Shown here: piece by piece, positions 1,113 to 25,071 of the stretch
How positions within the stretch are numbered: position 1 is the first letter of the stretch
Layout of the letters: each line of letters opens with the position of its first letter
Assembly: GCA_050246115.1 (NCBI GenBank)
Contig: JBFWWP010000018.1
Coordinates: 1 to 28,807, forward strand
Length of the DNA stretch: 28,807 nt
Direction of reading: 5' to 3'
From: Planctomycetota bacterium
GTDB taxonomy: Bacteria > Planctomycetota > UBA8108 > UBA1146 > JAJFFE01
Notes under the pieces: model-generated
Database searches by the model: none
What the model saw: only the letters and a program-made list of their open reading frames with translations
Told to the model about the DNA's origin: nothing
Made by a program: the position numbers and the translations under genes

Positions 1113-1766
1113 TCAGTCCCGGTTCCCGGCGATGCCGAGATCGACGACACGCGCCCCACTCCCGGGTTGGTGCCCCGCGATGACGGTGATGGCCCCGCGC
1201 CCACGCTCCTCGGCCAGCACGTGCTCGATGCGCCCGCGACCCTCGGCATGCTGCGCCGCCATGGGCTCGTCGAGCAAGATCAGGGAACGCTGCGATGCCA
1301 AGGTGCGAAGCAACGCACACCGCTGCGCTTCACCGCCGGAGAGGGCGGGCGGCTTGCGGGTCAACAGGTGAGTCACCCCCAGTTCGTCGGCGAGGCGGGT
1401 GACACGCTCGGCTATCGGCTCGCCGCGTTCCCCCGAGTGCCGGGCGGCCTCGCGAGCCACCCACATCGCCTGGCGCCCTACGCTCAAGTGTGGCCAAAGC
1501 CCGAGGTCTTGAAGCAAGAGCGCCACGTCACGCTTCCACGCGGGGCACTCCGCACCCCCACCGACGAGCCGATGACCGTTCAGTTCGACGTTCCCGCGTG
1601 CGGCCGGCAGCAGCCCCGCGATGACGCCGAGCAGGGTGCTCTTGCCTGCACCATTGGGGCCCACGAGCCAAAGCTCCGCTCCCGGCTCGACCGCGAAGTC
1701 GATCGGCCCCGCTCGCAACCGGCCGCGAACCAGCCACAGGTCCCCGACGACAAGTCCCTTCGGCAT
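1113..1766 (-). CDS. ABC transporter ATP-binding protein, short form without a C-terminal regulatory domain (ThiQ/FbpC-like)
   Basis: Walker A GPNGAGKST, signature LSGGEAQR and Walker B LILLDEP are present. The start ATG at 1764-1766 overlaps the permease TGA stop by one nucleotide (TGATG on the minus strand), indicating translational coupling. Confidence 0.85.
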   Translation of the reverse strand: MPKGLVVGDLWLVRGRLRAGPIDFAVEPGAELWLVGPNGAGKSTLLGVIAGLLPAARGNVELNGHRLVGGGAECPAWKRDVALLLQDLGLWPHLSVGRQAMWVAREAARHSGERGEPIAERVTRLADELGVTHLLTRKPPALSGGEAQRCALLRTLASQRSLILLDEPMAAQHAEGRGRIEHVLAEERGRGAITVIAGHQPGSGARVVDLGIAGNRD

Positions 1767-3271
1767 CACGAGGACGACCTCCCTCTCGGGGTGAGCCAAC
1801 CAAGCAGCACGGCGACGAGCACCCCGACCGCGCCCAGTCCTACCGCCAACTGCGCCGCTTGGGCGTCGTGGCGAAAGTGGAGGAACTGATGCAGTTCCAC
1901 GATCGGCGACAGCTGCCCCGGCGGCATCAAGAGCGAAGCCACCTCGACGTCACCGAGGATCAGCACCATCACCACCAGGCCCGCGATCGTCAGAAACGGG
2001 GCGGCCAGCGGCGTGAGTACGCACCACCGGCGAGTTCGTGGCCCCAGGAGCAGTTCGGCGGCGTTCCGTTGCGACTGCGGCACCGCGTGGATCGCCCACA
2101 GCCCCAGCACCACCCCAACCCCCAGGTAACGAGCCGCCTGTCCCAGATTGAGGAGCACTGGCCCGGTCCAAGAGCGCGGGAGCCAGTGCTGCACCGTCTC
2201 GAGCAGCGCAAGCGCTCCGAGGCTACCCGGTACGAGCAGCGGGAGCGCACACGCGAGCACCACCCCACGCCGCTGAGTAAGCGCCAGTCGCCAACCCAGC
2301 CCGACGATGACGAACGCCAAAGCCGCTGCTCGGACGGCCTCGAGAGCGAGCCCCTCGGTCCAGAGCCCGAGGGTTGGCACTGGATGACCCGCGGCTCGGT
2401 GCAAGAGCGCACCCCACGGAATGGTCCACGACAGCGCAACGGTCCAGAGCCCCCCGGTCACCCATCGCGCCGCAGGCCCAGCGGGCAAGTACGCTCGCCC
2501 GCCCACCGCGGGCAGTGCCTGCGCACGACGCTCGCCGCGCACCACCGCCCACGCGATCGGCAGAGTCATCGCCGCCAACAGCCCCGTCAGCGCCCAGCCC
2601 TCGCTCGGGTCACGCGACGCAGTGAACGCGGCGAGTACGCGATCCCCGAGTGTCTCGACGCCCGCGTAGCCCGCGACTTCCCGGGCAGGTACCAGCAGCG
2701 CGAAGACCAAGAGCGTCATGCGCGCGATCGTGCCGCGCACTCGGGGGACCAGCACGCGCAACGTCCCGGCAAGGGGGGGGAACGAAGCCGTGAGCGCCTC
2801 ACGCTCCGCGCGATCGACGCCGCGGATCGCGCTCGATACACCCCAGAACACGATCGGTGCCATCTGCCAAGCCGAGAGCAAGGCGGCACCCCACACGCCG
2901 CGCACCAGGAATCCGCAGGGTCCACCGGCGAGCAGCGCGTTGGCCGCGGTCGTGAGCACCGCTGGCGGGAACAAGAAAGGGAGCAACAGGAAGGGTTCGA
3001 CGAAGTGGCGGCCGCGCACGGGGAACGCCCACAAGGAGACGGCTTCGAGCGTGCCGAGCAGCCCCGCGCCCAGCGCGGCGATCGTAGCGACCGCGAACGT
3101 ATCGACGAGAACGCGCACGACGCTGTCGGCGGACAGCCCGACGGTGGGTGCTGCCGGCGGCTCGAGGCACAGCCACCCACCGATCGGCAGATAGAACCCG
3201 AGCACCGGAATGACGAGCGGCCAGAGGCCGAGCCAGTCGCCTCGACCGCGCCCGCAGCCAAACCCCGTCAC
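1766..3271 (-). CDS. ABC importer permease, two-domain fused type (FbpB/ThiP-like)
   Basis: It is a long polytopic hydrophobic protein with two copies of the binding-protein-dependent transporter inner-membrane region (for example LAGTLRVLVPRVRGT and the GQAARYLGVGVVLGLWAI region). The N-terminal 180 aa of the ORF track entry are arginine-rich overlap junk. I place the start at the GTG at 3269-3271, which overlaps the binding-protein TGA stop (GTGA). Confidence 0.75.
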   Translation of the reverse strand: MTGFGCGRGRGDWLGLWPLVIPVLGFYLPIGGWLCLEPPAAPTVGLSADSVVRVLVDTFAVATIAALGAGLLGTLEAVSLWAFPVRGRHFVEPFLLLPFLFPPAVLTTAANALLAGGPCGFLVRGVWGAALLSAWQMAPIVFWGVSSAIRGVDRAEREALTASFPPLAGTLRVLVPRVRGTIARMTLLVFALLVPAREVAGYAGVETLGDRVLAAFTASRDPSEGWALTGLLAAMTLPIAWAVVRGERRAQALPAVGGRAYLPAGPAARWVTGGLWTVALSWTIPWGALLHRAAGHPVPTLGLWTEGLALEAVRAAALAFVIVGLGWRLALTQRRGVVLACALPLLVPGSLGALALLETVQHWLPRSWTGPVLLNLGQAARYLGVGVVLGLWAIHAVPQSQRNAAELLLGPRTRRWCVLTPLAAPFLTIAGLVVMVLILGDVEVASLLMPPGQLSPIVELHQFLHFRHDAQAAQLAVGLGAVGVLVAVLLGWLTPRGRSSS

Positions 3272-7164: not shown

Positions 7165-8922
7165 TTACGGACACGTGAAGCGATGACATTGCAACAAACC
7201 CACCCCGGGATGCGATCCACAATCCGGGTAGGGCGGGGGCGGTACGAAGCTGGACTCGAACAACGTCGCGAGCAGGAGGAGTACGTCGGCCAAACCGGTG
7301 GTGGCGTCCTCGTCGATGTCGACGGCGGCCGCGCAGGATACCGTCGTCCCGAGATAGAGATGTCCCAGCAGGAAGGGCACATCCGCGACATCGACCCGGA
7401 GGTCGCCGTTCGCGTCGCCCCGCACGAACATCGGCACCGGTTCGTTCCCGCGATGAAACGAACCGCCACTGCTGCCGTCATGGCAGAACTGCGGCCACGG
7501 CGCGGGTTGCCCCTGGGTACCGATCGCCGGCTGATCCCACGCAAAGATCTCGTGGTTCCAGGTGTGGATGATCTCCATGTCGCCATCGCCGTCGAGGTCA
7601 GCGAGCGCCGGCACCAGTAGCTCCCTATACGGTGCCACGACGCCCGGAGGAAACGCCTTGGGCCAACCGGGCAACGGCTCGAGCGTCGCACTGTTCAAGA
7701 CATGGAGGGTCCAAGCATCCTCGAGCGGGAGGTCGATGCGGTAGATCGACCACACGACAATCTCTAGCTGCCCATCCCCGTCGACGTCGCCCACCACCGG
7801 CGGTTTGTAGTTGCGGTACGGGAGCACGTCCGAGACCTCCTTCGCCACCACGAAGCCGGAGGTGACGACCGAGTACTGGTGCACCTTCGCCACGCGAAGC
7901 AGGTCGCCCGCCAGTACGACCTCCAACCACCCGTCCGCGTCGAGGTCGGCGACTGCCGGATAGGGATAGGTGACCGAAGGCGCTGCGGTCTCGAAGCGCT
8001 TGATGCCGTCCGGTCGGTACGCATGCAGCCGATAGTAGCCGGGCAGCACGATCTCCGGCTGGTGATCCTGGTCGAGGTCGGCGATCACCGGCGTAAACAC
8101 CTCTCCTCCCGGGTGCGGTTGCAGCGGCCAGCCGGGGCGAACGCTGCCATTACCATCGAGAAGCCACACCGATGGCTCCGTGTAGTTCGGCCCAGAGAAC
8201 GGGACGCCCCAAAAGACGACCACGATCTCCGCTCGACCGTCCAGGTCGACGTCGCCGACTGCCAGCCCCGTGTCGATGAACGAGATGGGGTTCCCGACGT
8301 TCGGCGGCCACGTGAGCGACACCGGCCACCCCGGCTGGACCTGGCCGTCCGAGCCCAACACGTGGATGGTCAGATCAGGGTTGACCGCTTCGACGTAAAC
8401 GAGTTCGTCGAGGCCGTCGCCGTCGAGGTCGCCGAGAGCCATAGAGAGTTCGCTCACGCCATTCGCGGCATCGAGCGCGGGCCAGCCGGGAAGGACGCTG
8501 CCATCCGGTCCGAGCGCGAAGAACACGTCGATACCCGCGCCAGAAGTGTGGACTGCCGATTGATGGGGGCCGGGGACCAGATTGCCCGCGAACATCCGAG
8601 CCGAGCCCTCAACGGGGGAAGTCCAGTTGGGCACGAGCTGACCGTTAGTCAGGTATGCACGCGGCCCTTCCAACGGATTTCCCGATGGCACGACGATCTC
8701 AGGGGCTGCGTCCCCGTACACGTTCGCAACGATTGGGATGAACGAGTGGGCGACGGGGCCGATCTCGAAGGGCCAACCGGGCACGAGCGCAGCCTCGCCC
8801 TGCGCAAGCAGACGCCCTCCGAACGGGCCCCCGGCGAGCGGCATCAGGATGAGAACGCCGATCCATCTCCTCAGCGGAGCGGTCTCGCGACTCACTGACT
8901 GGAACGATCGGCTCATCGTCAT
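7165..8922 (-). CDS. Secreted FG-GAP/VCBS-repeat beta-propeller protein with a C-terminal dockerin-like module and Cys-rich tail
   Basis: The N-terminus MTMSRSFQSVSRETAPLRRWIGVLILMPLAGG is a signal peptide with an RR motif, so it may be Tat-exported. It has repeated Ca-binding loops (DLDGDGLDELV, DVDLDGRAEIV, DLDADGWLEVV, DVDGDGQLEIV, DLDGDGDMEII) and recurrent PGWP motifs, typical of an integrin-alpha-like 7-blade propeller. The C-terminus FVRGDANGDLRVDVADVPFLLGHLYLG...IDEDATTGLADVLLLLATLF is a dockerin-type double Ca-loop, followed by PPPPYPDCGSHPGVGLLQCHRFTCP. The ATG at 8920-8922 is preceded by AGAAGG, and the gene starts 23 nt after the upstream gene's stop. Confidence 0.8.
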   Translation of the reverse strand: MTMSRSFQSVSRETAPLRRWIGVLILMPLAGGPFGGRLLAQGEAALVPGWPFEIGPVAHSFIPIVANVYGDAAPEIVVPSGNPLEGPRAYLTNGQLVPNWTSPVEGSARMFAGNLVPGPHQSAVHTSGAGIDVFFALGPDGSVLPGWPALDAANGVSELSMALGDLDGDGLDELVYVEAVNPDLTIHVLGSDGQVQPGWPVSLTWPPNVGNPISFIDTGLAVGDVDLDGRAEIVVVFWGVPFSGPNYTEPSVWLLDGNGSVRPGWPLQPHPGGEVFTPVIADLDQDHQPEIVLPGYYRLHAYRPDGIKRFETAAPSVTYPYPAVADLDADGWLEVVLAGDLLRVAKVHQYSVVTSGFVVAKEVSDVLPYRNYKPPVVGDVDGDGQLEIVVWSIYRIDLPLEDAWTLHVLNSATLEPLPGWPKAFPPGVVAPYRELLVPALADLDGDGDMEIIHTWNHEIFAWDQPAIGTQGQPAPWPQFCHDGSSGGSFHRGNEPVPMFVRGDANGDLRVDVADVPFLLGHLYLGTTVSCAAAVDIDEDATTGLADVLLLLATLFESSFVPPPPYPDCGSHPGVGLLQCHRFTCP

Positions 8923-8945: not shown

Positions 8946-11177
8946 CTACGGGCAATTGTTGAAGCTCGCGTCGACGCAGTACTCCGGAGTCGCCTCCGGG
9001 GTCTCATCCGGACCACACGTCGGAAACGGAGCGGGCGGCGGCGGTCCCCCGCTGAAGAGGTAGCCCAGAAGGTAGACCGAGTCCGCAAGGTTGACCGTGT
9101 CCATGTCGTTCGCGTCGTACGCATCAAGGCAGTTCTGGAGCGCTTGGCCACTGAACAAGTAGGCCAATAGCACGACCGCATCGGAGAGATTGAGGACCCC
9201 GTCGCCGTTGGCATCCCCACGGACGAACGGCACCGTTGCTTCGTCTGCACCGCGATCCGAGCCGGCACCCGCGACACCGAGGATATCCAGCGCCCTCGGT
9301 TCACCATCGATGTCGGCGGTGAGCGTGTAGGTCAAGCCAGGGTCAGCGCTGTCGATGGCGGGGGATGTCTTTCCGGCGATGTGGTAGTCGGTGCCCAGTC
9401 CTGGCAGAGTCGCTACCGTAGCGAAGCCCTCCAGGTTTGCCCCGCCCACCGCCGGACTGAAGGGAGGCAGCAACGAGTAGCTCAGCGCGGTCGCCGTCGG
9501 TGCTTGCGGCAGTTCCGCGAAGTACTCGAGTTCATGCCCGGCTGCAAATGGCAGCACATTGTTCCGAACAACGTTCGAGGTGCCCGCAAACGTCGACCCG
9601 CTTGCGACGAAGAGGCCGGCGCCCAGGCCTCCTTGATCGAGCTCGTTCAAGGTGAGAGTGTTCGCATCCATGCGAAACGCGCCGGGCCCTGGGCTCTGTT
9701 GTGCACTCACGTACGCGCCGCCTCCCCGCACCCGTGCCGTGTTGCGATAGATGGCGTTCCCCTCGACGAAAATCACGGAAAAGCTGGTCAGTTGGGCGTC
9801 GACGAACAGGCCTCCGCCAGACTCCGTCGCGGGCCCCGCCCCTGCGTCGAAGGGCGGATCGACCTGCACGTCGTGGTCGCGGATCTCGTTGCCCACGATC
9901 GAGACCGCGAAGGCCACGGGTGGAGTAATGTTCGTCGCCTCCAGGTACAGTCCAAGGCCCGCGTACCGGCTGCCGCCGACCGAAACCGGAAGAAGCGGCA
10001 ACCAGGTCTCGTTCTCACGGATTAGATTGGCGATCACCTCGAGCGTGGTCGCTGGCGGCGATGGCAGTGTGGGCCGGAGAAACAGGTACACGCCGGCACC
10101 CTCCTGAGCCGTGTTCCGGGCGACGTCGTTCCGACAGATCACCCACTGGCTGCCGCCGTCCACCACTTCCAGCGCGATCCCGCCGCCACGCCGCGGAACT
10201 TGCTCTCCGACGTCGCCGAAGACGTTGTCGACAACCGTGTTGTCGGCAATGACCGCGTCTCCTCCCTGCTGGTAGACGCCCGCTCCGAGAAACGCGCTGG
10301 GTCCGCCGACTGCACCGGTGACCTCATTGTTCGCGATGAGGTTGTGAGCCACTACGCTGTCCAGGCCGTCCGTGAAGATCATGGCTACGCCACCCCCGCC
10401 AAGCAGAGCATCATTGTCGACGATCTCGTTGCCAAGAATCGAAACGGGAGCTTGGATGACGCGAATGCCGCCCCCGTGGTCAAGGCCGGTGCCCAGCGTG
10501 ATCCTGAAACCGTGGCGTACGACTCCACTCGTCGATGCGACCACCGCGCCAATCTGTACGCGACCGGCGGTGGACTGGGCGCAGAAAGATGGTGCGCCTT
10601 GCTCGATCACGATCCCACCATTGACTATCGTGCTTGCCGGCCCTCCGGAAGCAAAGAGCGTCAGCCCACGTGGAAAGCACTTCGGGTCGATCGTCACCGA
10701 GGTGTAAGTGCCGGGTTCGACCTGAATCACGTACGGGATGGTCGGGATCAGGGCCGCTCCGATGTCAACTGCGAGTTGAATCGCATTGGGCGTCGTTGGA
10801 CCGACGATCGCGTCGACAGGACTTGGAAGGGAACTCGGTGCCGGAGGCGCGCATCCTTGGCTTCCCTGGGCCGACTGGGTTTGACCCTCCGAGCCCTCGG
10901 GGGGTGCAGCGGCAACCGGCTCATTCGGCCCGGGTGACTCGCTGGCTGGCGGAGGCAGTTGAGCAGCGGAGCTGCCGAAGTAGTCACTCGCATCGAGGAG
11001 TCCGCCGAACCTGGGGGTGCAGTGGCTCAGAAGCGTCGAGAGGGAGCCGCCCTGGACGAGCCACCAGTCGACGATGAACCGATCGATCTCGTTGGCTTGC
11101 CCGTCACCATCCACGTCGATCAACGCCAACAAAGTGTGCGGAGCCTCGGCACGAGCCGGACACGGGCTCCCGATCAC
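8946..11177 (-). CDS. Secreted right-handed parallel beta-helix repeat protein with an N-terminal EF-hand-like loop and a C-terminal dockerin-like module plus Cys-rich tail; the N-terminus depends on the phase of the upstream (CCTT)n tract
   Basis: It shows the periodic beta-helix repeats IVDND, IANNEVTG, IADNTVVDN, ICRNDVARN, IVGNEIRDH, IYRNTA and VRNNV. The N-terminus carries DVDGDGQANEID, and the C-terminus carries VRGDANGDGVLNLSDAVVLLAYLF...DANDMDTVNLADSVYLLGYLFSGGPPPPAPFPTCGPDETPEATPEYCVDASFNNCP. The annotated start is an in-frame GTG at 11177 with poor SD spacing. The in-frame upstream sequence encodes a perfect signal peptide but lacks an in-frame ATG in the present repeat state. Confidence 0.75.
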   Translation of the reverse strand: MIGSPCPARAEAPHTLLALIDVDGDGQANEIDRFIVDWWLVQGGSLSTLLSHCTPRFGGLLDASDYFGSSAAQLPPPASESPGPNEPVAAAPPEGSEGQTQSAQGSQGCAPPAPSSLPSPVDAIVGPTTPNAIQLAVDIGAALIPTIPYVIQVEPGTYTSVTIDPKCFPRGLTLFASGGPASTIVNGGIVIEQGAPSFCAQSTAGRVQIGAVVASTSGVVRHGFRITLGTGLDHGGGIRVIQAPVSILGNEIVDNDALLGGGGVAMIFTDGLDSVVAHNLIANNEVTGAVGGPSAFLGAGVYQQGGDAVIADNTVVDNVFGDVGEQVPRRGGGIALEVVDGGSQWVICRNDVARNTAQEGAGVYLFLRPTLPSPPATTLEVIANLIRENETWLPLLPVSVGGSRYAGLGLYLEATNITPPVAFAVSIVGNEIRDHDVQVDPPFDAGAGPATESGGGLFVDAQLTSFSVIFVEGNAIYRNTARVRGGGAYVSAQQSPGPGAFRMDANTLTLNELDQGGLGAGLFVASGSTFAGTSNVVRNNVLPFAAGHELEYFAELPQAPTATALSYSLLPPFSPAVGGANLEGFATVATLPGLGTDYHIAGKTSPAIDSADPGLTYTLTADIDGEPRALDILGVAGAGSDRGADEATVPFVRGDANGDGVLNLSDAVVLLAYLFSGQALQNCLDAYDANDMDTVNLADSVYLLGYLFSGGPPPPAPFPTCGPDETPEATPEYCVDASFNNCP

Positions 11178-11212
11178 CCCGATCGCCGACAGAACTGCGC
11201 CCGTGACTAGAC

Positions 11213-11232
11213 AAGGAAGGAAGGAAGGAAGG
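11213..11232 (-). repeat. Tetranucleotide microsatellite (CCTT)5 on the coding strand (AAGG x5 on +, followed by an imperfect AAAG), a candidate slipped-strand phase-variation tract
   Basis: Read directly at 11213-11232. It lies between two ATG codons (first bases at 11259 and 11242, minus strand) and the beta-helix protein reading frame. Confidence 0.9.
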
Positions 11233-11473
11233 AAAGTCGCATAACGTCACCACCTTCATCTCTTGGGAAGCCACAGGCGCCACTCCGGAAATCATCGCCT
11301 CGCCCACGCGACAAGTCAACCTGCCCCTCAGGCCAGCAACGACCGAAGTCGCTGGTGCAACGTCTTTGCTTCGACGCATCCGCGGGCGTGACCCCGTCGC
11401 CAACTTCCCCGCAGCGCCAAGTCTACTGTCGGGGCCAACGCCTTTCGCTGCTCGCCTGGGCAATCGGGGCGTG

Positions 11474-11485
11474 GGTTCGCGAACC
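11474..11485. promoter_or_regulatory. Perfect 12-bp palindrome GGTTCGCGAACC in the divergent promoter region between the beta-helix gene and the POT transporter gene; a candidate operator
   Basis: Read directly. It lies in a roughly 380-bp divergent intergenic region. A second, imperfect palindrome GGTTCCCGATCCGGGACC lies about 60 bp downstream. Confidence 0.3.
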
Positions 11486-11623
11486 GGGTAGGCACGGATC
11501 CCCCACGACGACTCGACCTGATACACTCCGCGCCCTGGCTCGGTTCCCGATCCGGGACCCCGTGACCGTCGAAGACTGCTGGCACCGAGGGTGAGTGTCT
11601 TTCTGGACGAGGAGATCCATCGG

Positions 11624-13618
11624 ATGACGAACGACCGAGAACCGACCCCGCTTCTGTTCGGCCACCCCGCCGGACTGTTCACCCTGTTCTTCGCCGAGAT
11701 GTGGGAGCGTTTCTCGTACTACGGGATGCGCGCGCTACTGATCTTCTACATGACGAAGGGGTTCCTGGGTTACGGAGACAGCGACGCCTACGCCGTCTAC
11801 GGCGCCTACACCGCCCTCGTTTATATGACTCCGTTCTTCGGGGGCATGCTCGCGGACCGCATCTTGGGACAGCGACGCGCTGTGGTACTCGGAGGCATCC
11901 TGATGGCCCTCGGCCATTTGACCATGACCTTCGAGGACAAAACGATGTTCTTCACGGCCCTGGCGCTGTTGATCACTGGCAACGGCTTCTTCAAACCGAA
12001 CATCTCGACGTTGGTGGGGAGTCTGTATCCGAAAGGGAGCCCGCGCCGGGATGGCGGCTTCACAATCTTCTACATGGGAATCAACCTCGGCGCCGCCATT
12101 TCACCGCTTCTCTGCGGCTACGTCGGAGAAACGTACGGCTGGCACTACGGATTCGGCCTGGCAACGGTGGGCATGTTGGCCGGCCTTGCCGTATTCGTAG
12201 CTCCCACCTTCATCACGCAGATCATCATCTTCTGGTCGGCCGCCGCGACCGCGGGATCGCTCTTCTGGTTTCACCCCGAGGGGATCTTCTCGACCCTGGT
12301 GAACTGCTTCATCGCCGTGGCGCTGTTGGCTGCGGCGGGCGTCTCCATCGTGGCGCTCGGCCGCGGGGGACTGCCGGCGCATGTTGGCCAGCCGCCCGAC
12401 CCCGAGCGGCTATCGCGTCCGCTCGTGGCCGGGCTCCGGACCGAGTACGCCGTCTACTTGGGCGCGGTCGTGGCGATTCCAGTGTTCGCGCTGCTGGTGT
12501 CGGGCTTCTCAGGGTTCACGTCGCACGGGGAACCGCTCCAACTGGCCTCGAACGAACTGATCAAGAACCTCGAGAACAGCCCCAACCGAATCGCCCCCGT
12601 CGTCGCCATGGTCGTCAAGGAGGCGAGCAAGCCGGCGGGCCTGCTGCTTTTCGTCGCGGGTCTGGGCTCCTTGATCTACCTCACCCTCGAGACTTTCCGC
12701 CTCGACAAAGTGCGCCGCGAACGAATGTTCGTGGTCCTCATCCTGACCTTCTTCTCGCTGTTCTTCTGGGCGTTCTTCGAGCAGGCCGGCAGTTCGATCA
12801 ACAACTTCACCGATCGGAACGTCGATCGCGTGTTCGCCGAGCGGGTGGTGACCGCGGACGACGTGGGCAAGACCATCCAGCTCAGCCCCACACAGGAACA
12901 GTTCGGCTATTCGAATGGTGGTTCATTGTTCACCCTCGATACGCTGACGGCACTCCGCGCCGAAGAGGGCCGACTTCCAAACTTCCAGATCGACTGGGTC
13001 GTGACCGCAGACAACGTCGGCATGAAGATCGCAGATCGCGGGGGCGAAGTGCCGGCGAGCACGTTCCAGTCGGTCAACGCGGTGTTCATCCTGCTCTTTG
13101 GATTGATCCTCACCGCACTGTGGAGCTGGCTCGGAGCCCGAGGGTTCGAACCCAGCACACCCCTGAAGTTCGCCCTCGGCCTCATTCAGCTGGCCCTCGG
13201 ATTCGGTGCGTTCTGGTATGGCGCACAGACTGCCGACAGCCGTGGCATGGTCGGCGTCCAGTGGCTCATTCTCGGCTACCTACTCCACACGACCGGCGAG
13301 CTGTGCCTCTCCCCGGTCGGATTGTCGATGGTCACCAAGCTGACGCCGGCCCGACTGGCCAGCACTTTGATGGGAACGTGGTTCCTGGCGACCGCGTTCT
13401 CTCAGTACCTCGCAGGGATCATCTCGCTCTTCACGAGCGTGTCGGGAGAAGGCGCCGACGGGAACGTCATCCCGCCGCCGTCCCAAACGGTGCACGTCTA
13501 CGGAAACGTGTTCTTCCAGATTGCGGTGGCGGGCCTGATCTGCGGGTGCGTCTGTCTGGTGCTGGTGCCCGTCATCAAGCGGTGGCAGCACGAAGGAGTC
13601 GTGGTCGAGGACGAGTGA
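11624..13618 (+). CDS. POT/PTR2-family proton-dependent oligopeptide transporter with a large inserted loop domain
   Basis: The PTR2 signature FFAEMWERFSYYGMRALLIFYM is present, and there are multiple TM segments. I place the start at the ATG at 11624, which is preceded by GAGGAG at a 9-nt spacing. The loop of about 90 aa is non-hydrophobic and carries an internal repeat (VVTADDVGKTIQL / VVTADNVGMKIAD). Confidence 0.85.
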   Translation: MTNDREPTPLLFGHPAGLFTLFFAEMWERFSYYGMRALLIFYMTKGFLGYGDSDAYAVYGAYTALVYMTPFFGGMLADRILGQRRAVVLGGILMALGHLTMTFEDKTMFFTALALLITGNGFFKPNISTLVGSLYPKGSPRRDGGFTIFYMGINLGAAISPLLCGYVGETYGWHYGFGLATVGMLAGLAVFVAPTFITQIIIFWSAAATAGSLFWFHPEGIFSTLVNCFIAVALLAAAGVSIVALGRGGLPAHVGQPPDPERLSRPLVAGLRTEYAVYLGAVVAIPVFALLVSGFSGFTSHGEPLQLASNELIKNLENSPNRIAPVVAMVVKEASKPAGLLLFVAGLGSLIYLTLETFRLDKVRRERMFVVLILTFFSLFFWAFFEQAGSSINNFTDRNVDRVFAERVVTADDVGKTIQLSPTQEQFGYSNGGSLFTLDTLTALRAEEGRLPNFQIDWVVTADNVGMKIADRGGEVPASTFQSVNAVFILLFGLILTALWSWLGARGFEPSTPLKFALGLIQLALGFGAFWYGAQTADSRGMVGVQWLILGYLLHTTGELCLSPVGLSMVTKLTPARLASTLMGTWFLATAFSQYLAGIISLFTSVSGEGADGNVIPPPSQTVHVYGNVFFQIAVAGLICGCVCLVLVPVIKRWQHEGVVVEDE

Positions 13619-13626
13619 CGAACGGG

Positions 13627-14865
13627 TCAGCGTTCTGCGAGAACGCGCGCCGGAGCTAGCTTCGCGATGCGACGCGCGGGGATCAGGTTGGTCAGTGCGC
13701 CCAACGCGGCGACCAGGACGCCAGTGCCCCACAAAGCGACCGCGGGCAGGTGCGACTTCCACGACAGGGCTGGCTCGACGAGGGCGTGGAGAAGCCAGGT
13801 GGCGAGGGCGTAGCCGAGCGGCAACGCGAGTAAGGCGAGTAGGGTGCCCTCGGCGACGAGCGGCAGCACGACTGCCGCGCGCGTTGCACCCTCGACGCGT
13901 CGGATGGCGATCTCGGGGTAGCGTTCCTCGATCGCCAGGGTCGCGATGGTGCTGTTGAGGAGCAGCATCACGAACAGGTTGACGATCCAGAAGAAATTCG
14001 CGAGGGAGCTGAAGCGGTCGACCATCTCAATGAGAAACTCGGCCCAGTGCTTCTGTACGTGGAAGAACGGTTCGACGCCTCGGGTCTTCAGGAACTCGCG
14101 AGTGCGATCGGCGATCGAGTCCACGGCATCGACGCTTGGCGCCTGCACGATGACGCCAGACGGAGCCTCGTCCGTCAGGTGAAGATAGATGTTCTTGAAC
14201 TCGAGTCGCCGCGCTGAGATCGACCGTGCCATCGCCTGCGAATCGAACATGCCGAGTTGCTGCCGCAAGGAGATCGGGTCGCGCATCACACCGACCACGC
14301 GGGCTCGGAACTTGACCCCACCGCGGGCAGCGTCGAATTCCTGCCCCACCATGCGCTCCGGGTTGGTATCCAGTTCGCGCGCAAAGGCCTCGTCGAGAAC
14401 CACGGGAGTGATCCCGTCGGTCGTTCGGTCGCCGTCTTCCAGGAAGCGACCCGCGAGCATGCCGCCGGCGAGCACGTTCGCGAACTGCGGCGTGGTGATC
14501 ATGTAGGTCGGGGACCGCTTCGCGCGAAACAGCTCCAGCACCCCAGCGAGCTCCATCTTGAACGGAATGACCGCGCGCACCGCCGACCCCAGCTCTGCGC
14601 GCAGAGAAGCCACATCCTCGCGATCGAGCTTGCGTCCGCTCCCGTCGCCGATCTTCACCCAACCAACCTGGAGCGGGTTCAAGCACACGACGCAGTCGAT
14701 GCCAAGACTGCGGAGATCCTTCGAGATGGCGCGACGTCCCCCTTCGACGACCGCGATGGTCATGAGCACAGAGGCGAAACCGGTGGCAAAAGTGGCGAGG
14801 ATCAACAGCGATCGCACGCGCTGCCGCGTCAGGGCCAAGACCACATCCTGCAGCAGCGGACTCAC
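13627..14865 (-). CDS. ABC transporter permease, FtsX-like (MacB/LolC/LolE/DevC family), second of a tandem pair
   Basis: It has an N-terminal TM helix (VRSLLILATFATGFASVLMTIAVVEGG), a large periplasmic domain and a C-terminal FtsX-type 3-TM region (FFWIVNLFVMLLLNSTIATLAIEERYPEIAIRRVEGA...). The start GTG at 14863-14865 overlaps the upstream gene's TGA stop (GTGA) and is preceded by GGAGG at a 5-nt spacing. The upstream 314 aa of the ORF track entry are arginine-rich junk. Confidence 0.8.
   Translation of the reverse strand: MSPLLQDVVLALTRQRVRSLLILATFATGFASVLMTIAVVEGGRRAISKDLRSLGIDCVVCLNPLQVGWVKIGDGSGRKLDREDVASLRAELGSAVRAVIPFKMELAGVLELFRAKRSPTYMITTPQFANVLAGGMLAGRFLEDGDRTTDGITPVVLDEAFARELDTNPERMVGQEFDAARGGVKFRARVVGVMRDPISLRQQLGMFDSQAMARSISARRLEFKNIYLHLTDEAPSGVIVQAPSVDAVDSIADRTREFLKTRGVEPFFHVQKHWAEFLIEMVDRFSSLANFFWIVNLFVMLLLNSTIATLAIEERYPEIAIRRVEGATRAAVVLPLVAEGTLLALLALPLGYALATWLLHALVEPALSWKSHLPAVALWGTGVLVAALGALTNLIPARRIAKLAPARVLAER
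13631..13647. terminator. Hairpin GCGTTCTGCGAGAACGC (7-bp stem, 3-nt loop) at the convergent junction of the POT gene (+) and the FtsX permease gene (-)
   Basis: Read directly. It lies 13 nt after the POT TGA stop and inside the last codons of the convergent permease gene. There is no U-tract. Confidence 0.3.
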
Positions 14866-16202
14866 CCCGCCCTCCGGAGCAAACTCATGGGATCGTGCTT
14901 CGACGCCCGCCACGCGGGATAGGCCGATGCGACCACGGCACCGACGGTGAGCACGACGCCCGCCTGAATCGTGTCGGACCAGGGGAGCGTCGCCGCGACC
15001 GCGACGTTGGGGTCGAGCGCCACGCGCAGCTCGGCGAGCCCCATGCCGCAAGCCAAACCGACCGCGAACCCCACGATCGCGAGGAGCACCCCCTCGCACA
15101 CGAACTGCGTGAAGATGTCGAGGCGCCGGGCTCCCTCGGCGCGGCGCAGGGCGATCTCCCGGCGGCGCTGCCAGCCGGAGAGCAGCAGCAAGTTCGCGAG
15201 CACCAGCAAGCCCATGGTGACGAAGAGGCAGAAGAAGACCTCGTGCAACACCAGGTACCCCTGCATCTCCGGCGCGGTCATGATCGGCCACACCGCGTTG
15301 GTGTAGAGCAGAGGAGAACGGCCGCGCTCCACCAGCAGCTTCTCGGCTTGCGCCGCGCACACCCCGACAAGGGTCGGCTCGACCCGGATGAACAGCCAGT
15401 CGAGGCGGTCGCCCGGCACGGCCGAGCGCGGGAGGTAAACGCCCAAGCCGGTCGAGCGCCACGGGGCGTCGGCGGGCGCGATGCCCACTGCGCGGAGCAA
15501 GGTCGACACGAGTTTCGAAAAGCGGGCGTCGTCGCGGACGCCCATGGCATCGGCGTCGTCGCGCTCGTCCTCGATGACACCCACGACGTGGAGCATGCGC
15601 GCACCCGCGACCGACGCCTCGGCAGGGATGAGCGCAGGCAGGTCGGCGGGTCCCGTCGGCGCCAGCGCCATTCGCCGGCCGACGACGCCCGACGGATCGA
15701 CTCCGACCCCCAGGAGGTGCTCGACGAGCCCCAACTCGAGCGCGACCTCGGTGACCGGATCCGCCCCGGCCTCGGCCGCCGGGGTAGCACTCGGGTAACG
15801 GCCACAAAGTGCCTTCTTACCGCGGGTTGAGGAGATCTCGTCGTCGCATCCGAGGAGCCAAACGCGCGGGTCCAGTGCCTCGCCGACGACGAGGCTCGCG
15901 GGAGCGACTCGGAGGCCGGAGACCCTGGCGTCGGGGCCCAGCGCGGCGGCGAGACTGGGCAAGTCGGCCTCGATGGGGAAAACCGCCCCCCCCGGGTCAA
16001 CGCCGATTTGGACGAGGTCGGTGCCGATTTCGCGGGCCCGCTCCACGGCCGCGGCGCGTGTGCCGCCGATGACCGCCGCCGGCACGATCGCCAGCGCCAC
16101 CGCCCAGATCATCCCCTGGCTGACCAGGAGCGTCCGGAGCGGGTGCGCGGCGATCTCCCGGACCGCGATGGCAAGGTTCGCCTTCAGCGCCGTGTAGGAC
16201 AT
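14862..16202 (-). CDS. ABC transporter permease, FtsX-like (MacB/LolC/LolE/DevC family), first of a tandem pair
   Basis: The ATG at 16200-16202 gives MSYTALKANLAIAVREIAAHPLRTLLVSQGMIWAVALAIVPAAVIGG, a typical FtsX-type N-terminus. The C-terminal region EIALRRAEGARRLDIFTQFVCEGVLLAIVGFAVGLACG... is the FtsX domain. Confidence 0.8.
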   Translation of the reverse strand: MSYTALKANLAIAVREIAAHPLRTLLVSQGMIWAVALAIVPAAVIGGTRAAAVERAREIGTDLVQIGVDPGGAVFPIEADLPSLAAALGPDARVSGLRVAPASLVVGEALDPRVWLLGCDDEISSTRGKKALCGRYPSATPAAEAGADPVTEVALELGLVEHLLGVGVDPSGVVGRRMALAPTGPADLPALIPAEASVAGARMLHVVGVIEDERDDADAMGVRDDARFSKLVSTLLRAVGIAPADAPWRSTGLGVYLPRSAVPGDRLDWLFIRVEPTLVGVCAAQAEKLLVERGRSPLLYTNAVWPIMTAPEMQGYLVLHEVFFCLFVTMGLLVLANLLLLSGWQRRREIALRRAEGARRLDIFTQFVCEGVLLAIVGFAVGLACGMGLAELRVALDPNVAVAATLPWSDTIQAGVVLTVGAVVASAYPAWRASKHDPMSLLRRAG

Positions 16203-19375: not shown

Positions 19376-21103
19376 ATGAACATGCCGATAAAGCGCGGGA
19401 AGCTCCGAGTCGTCACCGTCTTTCTAGCAGGGACCATCTGCGCCCTCGCGAACGCCGAGGAACTCCCGCACTTCGCGACGCGCGAGCTCTCGATCCGCAC
19501 CGCGATCACGAGCGTCGGTGCGGCGCCCGTCGCGAGCTACCAGCTCTGGGTGACCACCGACGGCGGTCGCAGTTGGGCTCGTGGTGGCGCTCCGTACCCC
19601 GGGCCCGCACCGGTGCCATTCGTCGCCCCCGGGGATGGTCGCTACGGGTTCCTCGTCGCGGCCTTCGACAGCGCCGGCCTCGGTTCGCGCCCTCCGCAGC
19701 CGGGCCAGACCCCAGACTTCGAGTGCGTGGTCGACACCGAAGCTCCGGCGCTCGAAGTCCTACGGCCCGAGACGTCGGATGCGATCTATGCCGGTGGACA
19801 GGTGATCTGCCAGTGGCGCGCTCTGGACGCCAGCCTCGGCCCCAAACCGGTTCGTATCGAGTACCGTCGCCGCCCCGACCCCGTGTGGCAGCCGATTCTG
19901 CCGGAGAACGACTTCATCGCCGAGGGATCCCAAGCCTGGTGGCCGCCGTTCGTCGACGGCGAGGTCGATCTCCGCATCGTGGCTACCGACCGAGCGGGGA
20001 ACCGGTCCGAGTGGGAATTGCCGGCCCCGCTCCGGGTCATCCCGTTCGACGGTTTCCGCGGTTCGCGAGTCCTCGCTGCGACGCCCTACTCATCCTTTCA
20101 CTCGGTTCCCATCTTCTACCGCATCCAGGAGTACACGCTCGTGGAACTCGAGGAGGTGGAGCTCTGGTATCGTCACGAGACCAGTTCCTGGGCACGCGCG
20201 AGCGACCCGGACAAGGTGTCGCCGTACCGTTTCGAAGCTCGACTCGATGGCAACTACTTCTTCTACCTTCGAGCCACGAATCGAAATGGCGTCGCCACGC
20301 GCGAACCACCGGGCGCGGATACCCCACCCGACCTACGGGTCATTGTCGACACGCACTCCCCCGAGGGGGCACTCCGTGTCGGCAACGGCGAGCGCAAGGT
20401 CTTCCACCGAGCAGGCGATCCGCTGGAGATCGCGTGGCAACTCGCCGACGCCAACCTGCGGGCGAGCGCGTGCCGGCTGGAGTACAGCCTCGACTCGGGT
20501 CACGATTGGCGTAGCCTGGCGAACGACATCCACCTCAGTGGCGGTAACGGCACCTTCCTCTGGCGCGCGCCGCTGCTCGAGATCGGGGAACTTCGAGTGC
20601 GACTGGTGGCACGCGACTACGCTGGCAATCAGACCTACGTGGAGTCGGACTCGATCCTGCACCTGATCAACCCGACGGTCGACCCGAAGGCGGCGGCGCA
20701 GGACTTCTATCAACGAGGGCTGTTTCTCTCGCGACTCGGGGATCGTGCGTCGCTGATGTCGGCACTCGAGAACTTCGATGTCGCCCTCACCTACGATCCC
20801 GAGCATGCGCTTGCCTGGCACGATCGCGGCGCCATCCGCATGCTCCTGAATCTGCCGCTCGCGGCGATCGCCGACTTCGAGCGCGCGCGGGAGCTCCGAC
20901 CGCGGGATCTCGATCTGACGTTCTCGCTGATCCGAGCACACTTGCACGTGGCCCGCAGTGGCAAGGACCCACAGGTCGACCACACGGCGATGGCGCGCAC
21001 GCTGTTCGAGTCCGTCTCGCGCGTGGACATCTACAAAGAGATCAACTACCGTGAACTCCTCAACGAGTATCAGCTCCTCGAGCAAGGTCTCGGATCGAAG
21101 TGA
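19376..21103 (+). CDS. Secreted protein with BNR/Asp-box repeats and C-terminal TPR repeats
   Basis: It starts at MNMPIKRGKLRVVTVFLAGTICALANAEE, a signal peptide with an AXA site. The BNR-like motifs are WVTTDGGRSWAR and SLDSGHDWRSL. The C-terminal helical repeats (DFYQRGLFLSRLGDRASLMSALENFDVALTYDPEHALAWHDRGAI...) are TPR-like. Confidence 0.7.
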   Translation: MNMPIKRGKLRVVTVFLAGTICALANAEELPHFATRELSIRTAITSVGAAPVASYQLWVTTDGGRSWARGGAPYPGPAPVPFVAPGDGRYGFLVAAFDSAGLGSRPPQPGQTPDFECVVDTEAPALEVLRPETSDAIYAGGQVICQWRALDASLGPKPVRIEYRRRPDPVWQPILPENDFIAEGSQAWWPPFVDGEVDLRIVATDRAGNRSEWELPAPLRVIPFDGFRGSRVLAATPYSSFHSVPIFYRIQEYTLVELEEVELWYRHETSSWARASDPDKVSPYRFEARLDGNYFFYLRATNRNGVATREPPGADTPPDLRVIVDTHSPEGALRVGNGERKVFHRAGDPLEIAWQLADANLRASACRLEYSLDSGHDWRSLANDIHLSGGNGTFLWRAPLLEIGELRVRLVARDYAGNQTYVESDSILHLINPTVDPKAAAQDFYQRGLFLSRLGDRASLMSALENFDVALTYDPEHALAWHDRGAIRMLLNLPLAAIADFERARELRPRDLDLTFSLIRAHLHVARSGKDPQVDHTAMARTLFESVSRVDIYKEINYRELLNEYQLLEQGLGSK

Positions 21104-23248: not shown

Positions 23249-23438
23249 CGCATAGGAGTCGCCCAAGAATAACTTCACCCTCTTGCTCGTCGCTTCGGGC
23301 CATCTTCGACCGATCCGAAAACCCCGAAATCCTCACCGGAACGAAGGCTACGCCTCCGGTTCCGAGCTTTCCGGATCGGCCGAATCTGACCCAAATCGAC
23401 GGCAAGATGTCGAAGTTATTCTTGGGCGACTCCTTATG
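23249..23438. mobile_element. MITE-like non-autonomous element of about 190 bp with 26-27-bp terminal inverted repeats and an internal long hairpin, in the convergent intergenic region between rsmD and the flotillin gene
   Basis: The left terminal repeat at 23251-23276 is CATAGGAGTCGCCCAAGAATAACTTC. The right terminal repeat, as the reverse complement of 23412-23438, is CATAAGGAGTCGCCCAAGAATAACTTC, which is identical apart from a single-A indel. The interior contains the complementary segments TCTTCGACCGATCCG / CGGATCGGCCGAA and CGGAACGAAGG..CCTCCGGTTCCG. No ORF lies inside. A TA dinucleotide abuts both ends. The flotillin TAA stop (23434-23436) lies at the right junction. Confidence 0.6.
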
Positions 23439-25071
23439 CCTTGGCCTTGCCGGGCGTCGGGTTTGACTTGGCGGCGGGGGGCCCTTCGGGAGCCTCGGTG
23501 GCTGCGGCCACGTTGGCCACCTCGGCCTTGGTCCCGTCCTTTTCGACCAGCTTGCCGAAGAACTCCGGCATCTCGACGCCGCCGATGTCCTTCATGATCT
23601 GCATCACGGGCGGCAGCATGCCGCCGAGACTACGAACGAACCCCGCGGCGCCGCCGGCTCCATTGCCGTTCCCGCCCCCATCCCAGCATACGACCTTGTC
23701 GAACTTCACGTTCGCGATCGCCGACGCAGCGGTCTCGGCAAGCTTGTCGAGGTGCTCGAGCATCAGCATCTGGAAGGCGGGCTGGGCGCCGCCGCAGCTG
23801 TCGACGATGAGGCGCAGGCCTTCGGCCTTGGCACGAAGCTGTTCGAACTCACCGCGGGCCTGTGCCTCGAGGCTGAGGAACACCGCCTTCGCCTCCGCTT
23901 CCGCGTGGATGCGTCGTCTCTCGGCAGCGGCCTCTGCGTCGACGACGACCTTCGCCTTCTCGGCGAGGGCCTGCGCCTCGAGTAGCGCGCGCTGCTCCGC
24001 CTCGACCTTCCGAGACTCGGCCTCGGCGGCCTTGGCCTCGGCCAGGTACTGCGCCTGGCGCACGCCCGCTTCGGCCTCCCGCTTGCGAGTCTCGGAGAGC
24101 TGGTAGGCTTCCGCCTCGCGTACCCGCAGTTCGGCATTGGTCGCGGCGATCTTGGCCTTGGCTGCGTTCTCGCCCTCGACCGCCTCTGCGTCCGCCGTGG
24201 CGATCGCGATCCGCTTGGCCCGATCGGCCGCCTTGACCTCGGCCTCGGTTTGAAACTGTGCGCGCTGCTCACCGATCTGCTTGTCACGGTTGAACTCGGC
24301 GATGCTCAACGCCTGGTTCTTGAGGGCGTTGGCGGTACCCACCGCGCGCTCCTTGTTCGCCTCCGCAACCTGAATCTCCTCCTCGCGCCGAGCCTTGGCC
24401 ACCCCGATCGCGCCATGGCGACGCTGCTCGGCCACGTCGATCTCGGCCTGCTGGATCGCCTCCGAGGCGGCTTTCCTACCGATGGCCTCGATGTAGCCCG
24501 ACTCGTCCATGATGTCGGTGATGTTCACGTTGAGAAGCACTAGACCGATCTTGTTCAGCTCCGGTTCGAGGCTGCTTTGGATGCTCTGCAGGAACATGTC
24601 TCGATCGCGGTTGATGGCCTCGATGCGCATGCCGGCGATGACCTGGCGTAGCTGCCCGAAGATGATGTCGCGGGCTTGCTGACCGATCTCGGTCGTGGTC
24701 AGTCCGAGCAGACGCTCGGCCGCATTGTGCATGATCGTCTCCTGGGTCCCAATGGCGACGGTGAACACGCTGGGCACGTTGATGCGAATGTTCTCGGCGG
24801 AGAGCGCGCCCGTGAGTGGGATCTCGATCTGGAGCGGATCGAGGCTCATGAAGCTGTAGTTCTGGATGAGCGGCAGGACGAAAGTGCCGCCTCCGTGCAG
24901 ACACTTGGCGGAGCGGTCGGCACCGACCTTTCCGTACACGACGAGCACTCGGTTCGATGGACAGCGCTTGTAGCGCTTCGCCAAGAACACCAGGAAGCCG
25001 AGCGCGGTGAGCACGACCGCGACGATCAGCACCAACAACAAACTGTTCGGTTCGTCGAACCACCCCAACAT
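23434..25071 (-). CDS. Flotillin / band-7 (SPFH-domain) protein, FloT/YqiK-like
   Basis: It has an N-terminal TM helix (LLLVLIVAVVLTALGFLVFLAKRY) and an SPFH domain. It also has a very long Ala/Glu-rich coiled-coil region (EAEVKAADRAKRIAIATADAEAVEGENAAKAKIAATNAELRVREAEAYQ...) that is diagnostic of flotillins. Confidence 0.9.
   Translation of the reverse strand: MLGWFDEPNSLLLVLIVAVVLTALGFLVFLAKRYKRCPSNRVLVVYGKVGADRSAKCLHGGGTFVLPLIQNYSFMSLDPLQIEIPLTGALSAENIRINVPSVFTVAIGTQETIMHNAAERLLGLTTTEIGQQARDIIFGQLRQVIAGMRIEAINRDRDMFLQSIQSSLEPELNKIGLVLLNVNITDIMDESGYIEAIGRKAASEAIQQAEIDVAEQRRHGAIGVAKARREEEIQVAEANKERAVGTANALKNQALSIAEFNRDKQIGEQRAQFQTEAEVKAADRAKRIAIATADAEAVEGENAAKAKIAATNAELRVREAEAYQLSETRKREAEAGVRQAQYLAEAKAAEAESRKVEAEQRALLEAQALAEKAKVVVDAEAAAERRRIHAEAEAKAVFLSLEAQARGEFEQLRAKAEGLRLIVDSCGGAQPAFQMLMLEHLDKLAETAASAIANVKFDKVVCWDGGGNGNGAGGAAGFVRSLGGMLPPVMQIMKDIGGVEMPEFFGKLVEKDGTKAEVANVAAATEAPEGPPAAKSNPTPGKAKA

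Follow-up and report, generated by a model that had tools for sequence, protein, structure and literature searches.

The beta-helix gene and its repeat tract

The DNA analysed here is contig JBFWWP010000018.1 of assembly GCA_050246115.1, from a Planctomycetota bacterium; the window means this whole stretch of 28,807 nucleotides (nt). Its minus strand carries a long open reading frame (ORF) for a right-handed beta-helix protein, in which a DVDGDG...DRFIVDWW module stands at the N-terminus and a dockerin-like domain at the C-terminus; it is publicly annotated as 743 amino acids (aa) from GTG 11177 and, in a sibling annotation, as 728 aa from TTG 11132. Upstream of the annotated start lie a CCTT microsatellite and two ATG codons, which a preliminary description of the sequence had read as a candidate three-state phase-variation switch. 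The features of this region are, in the order in which they are transcribed:

11257-11259, minus strand: ATG1, the alternative start of the preliminary description, in frame with the ORF only at 4 or 7 repeat units
11247-11256, minus strand: Shine-Dalgarno-like sequence AAGGTGGTGA, with its GGTGG core at 11254-11250, 7 nt upstream of ATG2
11247-11249, minus strand: TGA, the stop codon upstream in the frame of the main ORF
11240-11242, minus strand: ATG2, the probable native start, shifted by +1 against the ORF with 5 units and in frame with 3, 6 or 9
11234-11213, minus strand: TT(CCTT)5, a perfect tetranucleotide microsatellite of 22 nt or 5.5 units, found by direct reading and by TRF
11148-11213, minus strand: DNA for the rest of the signal peptide, CLVTGAVLSAIGVIGSPCPARA when read in the ORF frame
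11207-11209, minus strand: TAG at which, with 5 units, translation from ATG2 would stop after 11 codons (MRLSFLPSFLV*)
8946-11177, minus strand: the beta-helix ORF of the public annotation, with 743 aa counted from GTG 11177

The minus-strand sequence here is GAG ATG(11259) AAG GTG GTG ACG TT ATG(11242) CGA CTT T (CCTT)5 GTC TAG(11209-11207) TCA CGG, in which the five full CCTT units occupy 11232-11213 and the two T's before them extend the perfect period-4 tract. Direct reading and TRF thus bore out the preliminary description in placing (CCTT)5 between the ATG codons and an in-frame signal peptide. In a scan for simple sequence repeats (SSRs) this was the sole tetranucleotide repeat of at least 14 nt within the 28.8-kb window, whose other notable SSRs are only homopolymers of at most 8 nt and one 12-nt trinucleotide repeat, and a 16-nt AAGG-repeat pattern with at most two mismatches occurred in 0 of 100 dinucleotide-preserving shuffles. 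The homopolymers include a G8 run at 2773-2780, inside a 501-aa ORF (1766-3271), and a C8 run at 15986-15993, inside an FtsX-type gene (14862-16202); both runs are under the usual thresholds for phase-variable poly-G/C tracts.

The main ORF frame is open from 11246 and reads RYATFLPSFLPCLVTGAVLSAIG, then GTG 11177, then IGSPCPARAEAPH. It was correctly described as lacking an in-frame ATG in its upstream part; furthermore, there is no ATG, GTG or TTG in this frame between the TGA at 11249-11247 and GTG 11177, which is the first. The tract codes for part of the hydrophobic region of the signal peptide, as FLPSFLP in the ORF frame and as SFLPSFL in the ATG2 frame. By the genetic code (CCT-TCC-TTC-CTT), each frame of (CCTT)n yields one and the same cyclic Pro-Ser-Phe-Leu peptide, uncharged and free of stops, so that changes in unit number harm the signal peptide only through the frame downstream.

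Since the unit length is not divisible by three, a change in unit number toggles between a full-length and a truncated product, and alleles of 2 to 9 units simulated in silico reproduced the frame arithmetic that had been given for 4, 5 and 6 units. The product from ATG2 measures 762, 766 and 770 aa at n = 3, 6 and 9, and that from ATG1 769 and 773 aa at n = 4 and 7. At n = 5 and 8 neither ATG gives the full protein, and at 5 units ATG2 yields the 11-aa peptide MRLSFLPSFLV. On these simulated frames, the ON states from ATG2 are n = 3, 6 and 9.

A signal-peptide remnant upstream of the annotated start

The body of the protein was matched by two Pfam families, Beta_helix (PF13229, E 4.7e-7) and Dockerin_1 (PF00404, E 5.3e-5, just above its cut-off). 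Dockerin matches in the PDB were weak and of type I (E 0.0018-0.0081). Pfam and NCBIfam together returned only these two families for the ORF, with no homology to autotransporters or to Opa. A hydrophobic core is missing from MIGSPCPARAEAPH, with which a product from GTG 11177 would begin. Profiles of GC content at third codon positions over the 70-nt N-terminal region were uninformative as to frame.

With the extended ORF as a HMMER query against 1.84 billion representative proteins, we found four full-length homologues (P0006, P0008, P0011 and P0014) of 35-42% identity. Their alignments start at query residues 12-38, and only that of P0006, from residue 12, begins within the 23-residue extension upstream of GTG. 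In each of the four, Met and a basic residue lead into a hydrophobic core, followed by a cleavage motif of small residues, the signal peptides being MRYCVIAALCLALGATASSFA before AG in P0006, MYRSVAQVVFVVSLCLAGVSYS before QP in P0008, MHFKFSLFLAILTILLVARGSDCLA before QS in P0011 and MRRIGAIIIAVACINAPITCSA before QP in P0014. Directly after the signal peptide, all four have a conserved DVDGDG...DRFVVxWW...GGxL module. In the window protein the corresponding module, IDVDGDGxxxxxDRFIVDWWLxxGGxLSxLL, is encoded at 11021-11126 on the minus strand and covers residues ~18-52 of the 743-aa ORF, and in the four homologues it is conserved at the mature N-terminus. It resembles a single EF-hand or dockerin-like calcium loop and has no Pfam or NCBIfam model.

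The N-terminus that a 6-unit allele would encode, MRLSFLPSFLPCLVTG...ARA before EA, or in full MRLSFLPSFLPCLVTGAVLSAIGVIGSPCPARA followed by EAPHTLLALIDVDGDG, aligns with the four homologues from Met1. Cleavage is predicted after ARA and before EAPH, as placed by the AXA rule rather than by a predictor. The 743-codon body is intact and can be aligned to the homologues through to the C-terminus. Because the homologues have their signal peptides at the equivalent position and align from Met1, the in-frame extension is, judged by this comparison, what remains of a genuine signal peptide, and relative to its family the gene carries a frameshift. This agrees with the preliminary description, which had called the upstream stretch a signal peptide from its composition. 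The restored product would be secreted or surface-exposed.

The probable native start

Pairing energies with the Shine-Dalgarno (SD) region were calculated for the 20 nt upstream of each start against a generic 16S 3' tail, so that the anti-SD sequence is assumed and is not that of this genome. On this scale ATG2 scored -13.4 kcal/mol, the second strongest among 15 gene starts in the window, and the good SD that had been ascribed to it was thus upheld. ATG1 scored -2.6 kcal/mol, weaker than all 15 neighbouring starts, which range from -3.7 to -15.7 kcal/mol; GTG 11177 and TTG 11132 scored -8.6 and -5.9 kcal/mol. ATG 11242 is probably the native start. Upstream of both ATG codons there is one sigma-70-like promoter match, where 0.1 would be expected, and it is a consensus match only:

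11291-11319, minus strand: sigma-70-like promoter match (TTGACT, 17-nt spacer, GATGAT)

When the 5' region is folded at minimum free energy, about 12 bp (GCGCCUGUGGCU with AGUCACGGGCGC) form a stem between 11197-11208 and 11269-11280 that encloses both ATG codons and the repeat, and GAAGG pairs with CCUUC of the tract. We rejected a sequestering of the SD or another functional RNA structure, since the fold has a z-score of -1.48 and 16 of 200 shuffles fold equally well. There was no exact-seed inverted repeat in the 5' region and no Rfam match.

The repeat in other assemblies and samples

Exact-protein look-ups returned only two sources related to metagenome-assembled genomes (MAGs) and two Logan runs. 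The 743-aa product is encoded exactly in MAG GCA_050250155.1, contig JBFWPE010000004.1 (L001/L004), and the 728-aa call is present in a second NCBI MAG (locus tag AB7O52) and in the Logan assembly of SRR27751815 (L002). The runs are CA_2019 landfill metagenomes, sequenced as Illumina HiSeq 2x150 reads and assembled with metaSPAdes (bioRxiv 10.1101/2024.05.30.596742). The tract has exactly 5 units in the window, in GCA_050250155.1 and in the Logan SRR27751815 assembly, which together represent two samples.

The window is identical to the Logan SRR27751815 contigs and is presumably part of the AB7O52 MAG. It differs from GCA_050250155.1 by one single-nucleotide polymorphism (SNP; 5525, T versus C, minus strand) and by a 3-nt indel at about 16405 (GCCACCGTGG versus GCCGTGG), a divergence between the two MAGs of one SNP and one indel over about 16.6 kb. 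The SNP allele of GCA_050250155.1 is shared with a Logan SRR27751816 contig, which spans only the 3' end of the gene. The SNP and the indel mean that the window and GCA_050250155.1 are separate consensus sequences, and, as read from these differences, two near-clonal populations are present in two landfill samples. The 22-nt repeat is far shorter than the k-mers and the reads. Three agreeing assemblies, from two assemblers and Illumina reads, effectively exclude an assembly or sequencing indel, which the preliminary description had kept as an alternative. These are consensus sequences, in which minority alleles are not visible.

Similar tracts in other phyla

Scanning the GTDB species representatives for (CCTT)5 gave at least 120 stretches from many phyla. 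Among the stretches listed, 37 tracts on the CCTT-reading strand are followed by at least 150 open codons, and among these we picked by eye 11 loci that share one layout: an ATG, after 1-13 codons a (CCTT)5-10 tract, next a hydrophobic core with its cleavage or lipobox motif, and finally a long ORF. SD-like sequence is visible upstream in several of them. In nine of them the tract puts the ATG out of frame, and a change of one unit would join it to a canonical signal or lipoprotein peptide; the other two are in frame.

L016, Saprospiraceae: out of frame
L031, Anaerolineales: out of frame, MRLRLPSFLLLLLLGIAGLYATRPAQA
L038, Treponema: out of frame, MRRNSSFLPSFLPSFLGSLFLISC
L041, Aureispira: out of frame
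L046, 'Brocadiaceae': out of frame, MRIAPSFLPSFLLALTAFASATVTRAQS
L070, Lewinellaceae: out of frame
L076, Neisseria viridiae: out of frame, ...ILGGC, lipoprotein
L087, Acidobacteriota: out of frame
L092: out of frame
L062, Planctomycetales: in frame, 10.25 units
L108: in frame

When ten of the downstream ORFs were compared with Pfam, five were matched, all of them by domains of secreted or surface type: a T9SS sorting tail, CHB_HEX_C/Fn3_assoc, Beta_helix, an M48 peptidase and Big domains. The M48 peptidase protein is a lipoprotein, judged from its LGGC lipobox. The window protein has no homology to the other CCTT-tract proteins, which indicates that the design arose independently. With the caveat that the set was chosen by eye from the stretches listed, the predominance of out-of-frame but otherwise intact genes is what would be expected of unstable tracts and not of stable coding repeats. 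As a further caveat, a crude count gave no orientation bias of (CCTT)n versus (AAGG)n at the 5' ends of long ORFs (23 versus 20); the argument here draws on the signal-peptide loci checked by hand. A metagenome scan for length polymorphism at the Planctomycetales locus L062 found nothing.

On the purine strand, 20 of 113 (AAGG)n tracts judged lie a short way upstream of a long ORF or at its beginning (e.g. L012, L015, L018, L084 and L116). As the AAGG strand is SD-like, these tracts may be repeats of the 5' untranslated region or of the promoter spacer.

A proposed slipped-strand ON/OFF locus and its alternatives

The explanation that we favour, with a probability of about 0.5, is that this is a translational slipped-strand ON/OFF contingency-type locus, now OFF. 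Its product would be a secreted protein of beta-helix/dockerin type with its native start at ATG 11242 behind a strong SD, and its signal peptide would be encoded in part by the slippage-prone (CCTT)n microsatellite. At 5 units, translation from ATG 11242 would end after 11 codons, and since the body has no start codon upstream of the signal-peptide remnant, the gene would be OFF for export, making at best a signal-less product from GTG 11177 or TTG 11132. Slipped-strand mispairing during replication, through the gain of one unit or the loss of two (n = 6 or 3), would restore MRLSFLPSFLPCLVTGAVLSAIGVIGSPCPARA before EA... and with it the full secreted protein. On this explanation the tract would change length at an appreciable rate in its host and the switching would be used adaptively.

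This explanation is favoured by a pure tract directly after the start, by the intact ORF downstream of it, by the distance of a single unit from ON and by the recurrence of the layout in unrelated genes of other phyla. With 5 full units, or 5.5 with the partial one, the tract stands exactly at the PhasomeIt cut-off for tetranucleotides, and phase-variable tetranucleotide tracts are called at 5 units or more (PMC5953494). The slipped-strand contingency architecture of the preliminary description stands as regards the pure tract of at least 5 units and the intact ORF; the switching itself is our reading of these features.

Several observations weigh on the other side. The operational range begins at five units, so that the rate of switching may be low. 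No tract-length variation was seen across the three near-clonal consensus assemblies from two samples, and no other SSR of comparable class was found in the window plus 10 kb of flank (~39 kb). A search for orthologues with 4 or 6 units, as the preliminary description had proposed, yielded no close orthologue in public collections: a word-based search of 5.8 billion proteins recovered only the same protein (as the 728-aa and 743-aa calls), and protein-pattern scans of GTDB representatives and JGI metagenomes gave no relative. The FLPS periodicity was found in none of the homologues, which makes the repeat lineage-specific. Orthologues that lack the repeat and start at another codon had been named beforehand as evidence against a switch; the distant homologues do lack the repeat. 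The anti-SD sequence behind the SD energies is generic and does not come from the host organism. Finally, the literature that we searched held nothing specific on CCTT/TTCC/AAGG phase variation or on SSR phase variation in Planctomycetes, and to our knowledge SSR phase variation has not been demonstrated in Planctomycetota.

Somewhat less probable, yet a serious competitor, is a one-off frameshift pseudogene, in which a single slippage from 6 to 5 units became fixed in a clonal lineage, with no recurrent or adaptive switching. It would fit the identical 5-unit allele in both MAGs and both runs, the merely threshold length of the tract, the lack of a second contingency-type SSR across ~39 kb and the homologues without the repeat. 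However, the two MAGs are near-clonal, so that their common allele says little about the rate of slippage. Against a pseudogene, too, the 743-codon body has no further lesion and can be aligned end to end, and a pure tract of 5.5 units implies several earlier slippage steps, of which single ones traverse OFF frames. Furthermore, the analogous loci of other phyla are mostly out of frame and otherwise intact. The three-state switch that had been proposed, with 4 units ON from ATG1, 5 OFF and 6 ON from ATG2, is quite unlikely. Its frame arithmetic is correct, and the ATG1 product, MKVVTLCDFPSFLPCLV..., could still serve as a signal peptide; but the arithmetic modulo 3 is all that singles out ATG1, whose SD pairing (-2.6 kcal/mol, generic anti-SD) is the weakest of the starts tested and whose n-region has no net positive charge, since K and D cancel. 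At 4 units the strong ATG2 would moreover compete by translating the same mRNA out of frame, and it is with the ATG2 N-terminus that the homologues align.

We consider it very unlikely that translation starts where annotated, at GTG 11177 or TTG 11132, and gives a protein without a signal peptide, the upstream signal-like sequence being irrelevant or another export route being used. PGAP and other gene callers do place the starts there, and a weak SD-like GAGG lies 11 nt before TTG 11132; all full-length homologues, however, have an N-terminal signal peptide at the equivalent position, the adjacent dockerin-tailed FG-GAP protein has one as well, and MIGSPCPARAEAPH is devoid of a hydrophobic core. 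Hardly credible, finally, is that the frame is broken only by a sequencing or assembly indel in the repeat, or is restored by recoding, through frameshifting or tRNA hopping over 4 nt. Repeats are classical sites of both, and with identical codons every 4 nt a hop is conceivable in principle. Three assemblies nevertheless agree on 5 units, from two assemblers and Illumina reads. As to programmed frameshifting, the other alternative of the preliminary description, there is no X XXY YYZ slippery heptamer and no stop-codon pause, the codons CCU/UCC/UUC/CUU allow no cognate re-pairing in either +1 or -1, RNA structure is not significant (z = -1.48), Rfam gives no match, and the homologues are unshifted.

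Relation to known contingency loci

By analogy, the closest relatives in kind of the slipped-strand locus would be Neisseria autA/autB and opa, which it resembles in its working without being a member of their family. In meningococcal autB, AAGC tracts of 2-10 units in the DNA of the signal sequence vary between isolates; the gene is OFF in most strains, and in MC58 two units must be removed before the ORF extends N-terminally to include a predicted signal peptide (PMC5118866). As in autA/autB, the unit number here decides the frame; reference strains of those genes are often OFF, and short tracts still vary there. In contrast to autA/autB, the beta-helix/dockerin protein is not an autotransporter, the repeat unit is another one, and the organism, a Planctomycetota, lives free in a landfill and is no host-adapted pathogen; only for autA/autB has polymorphism in length been demonstrated.

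The opa genes (CTCTT/CTTCT) share with this locus a pyrimidine-rich coding repeat in the hydrophobic part of the leader, whose slippage switches the frame, and a homopurine-homopyrimidine tract. Belland is said to have reported in 1991 that the opa repeat lies in the leader peptide and has H-DNA potential. The opa repeats are, however, pentameric, multi-copy and of high tract number, with measured switching, whereas here a single 5-unit locus is known from sequence. The Opa repeat CTTCT is genic and has 7-21 units (PMC5953494). The lic, mod and hgp loci of Haemophilus influenzae likewise have tetranucleotide SSRs in 5' coding regions, translational ON/OFF control and surface-related functions (PMC2651432); the tetranucleotide loci of this species are the subject of De Bolle 2000, as cited in PMC5953494. 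Their tracts are typically much longer (often >10-30 units) and there are many loci per genome, unlike the one short tract in ~39 kb found here. Identical in layout are the 11 unannotated GTDB (CCTT)n loci, which are mostly one unit out of frame; they are known from genome sequence alone, and they have no sequence homology to the beta-helix protein.

The locus would thus belong to a class that is well known, but from a phylum and a habitat that are unusual for it. The preliminary description had called such an architecture unusual in environmental genomes, which holds in that it is rare per genome and does not hold in that it recurs with the same layout in several environmental phyla. More tentatively, (CCTT)n in signal-peptide DNA may be a convergent cross-phylum class of contingency switches for secreted and surface proteins of free-living environmental bacteria, of which this locus would be one OFF-phase example. 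The CCTT unit would then be favoured because every frame gives an uncharged, stop-free P-S-F-L peptide.

For the public annotation a correction follows: what has been deposited as a 743-aa and a 728-aa protein is in each case the remnant, lacking its signal peptide, of a secreted protein whose gene is frameshifted. If the tract truly switches, this would be classical slipped-strand phase variation in a free-living landfill Planctomycetota, and contingency loci are hardly documented in this phylum or in this lifestyle; if the frameshift is merely fixed, it is an ordinary pseudogene. The recurrence of CCTT in signal peptides could extend the ecological range over which SSR bet-hedging is known, and were the cross-phylum class true, SSR phase variation would be a general ecological bet-hedging strategy and not mainly a trait of host-adapted pathogens.

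Neighbouring genes and a dispersed element

A second secreted-type gene lies 23 nt downstream of the beta-helix ORF:

7165-8922, minus strand: FG-GAP/VCBS gene, which encodes a signal peptide of its own and ends in a dockerin-like tail

Both proteins have a terminal dockerin-like FVRGDANGD... module and a Cys-rich tail. From their spacing and orientation, the two genes are probably co-transcribed, and in such a likely operon a 5' frameshift in the beta-helix gene could be polar on the FG-GAP gene. A 192-aa ORF in the ATG1 frame (11104-11682) was discarded as spurious; it has no Pfam match and overlaps the start region of a divergent POT transporter gene.

The region also contains an element of about 190 nt (window 23250-23439) that resembles a miniature inverted-repeat transposable element, for which no Rfam family was found at gathering score. 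It has terminal inverted repeats (AGGAGTCGCCCAAGAATAACTTC ... GAAGTTATTCTTGGGCGACTCCT) and is self-complementary overall. A partial copy occupies positions 1-70 of the window, and further copies are found in L005 at about 10777-10879, 12137-12324 and 20179-20361, which makes at least four copies of 94-95% identity within ~39 kb, all of them intergenic.

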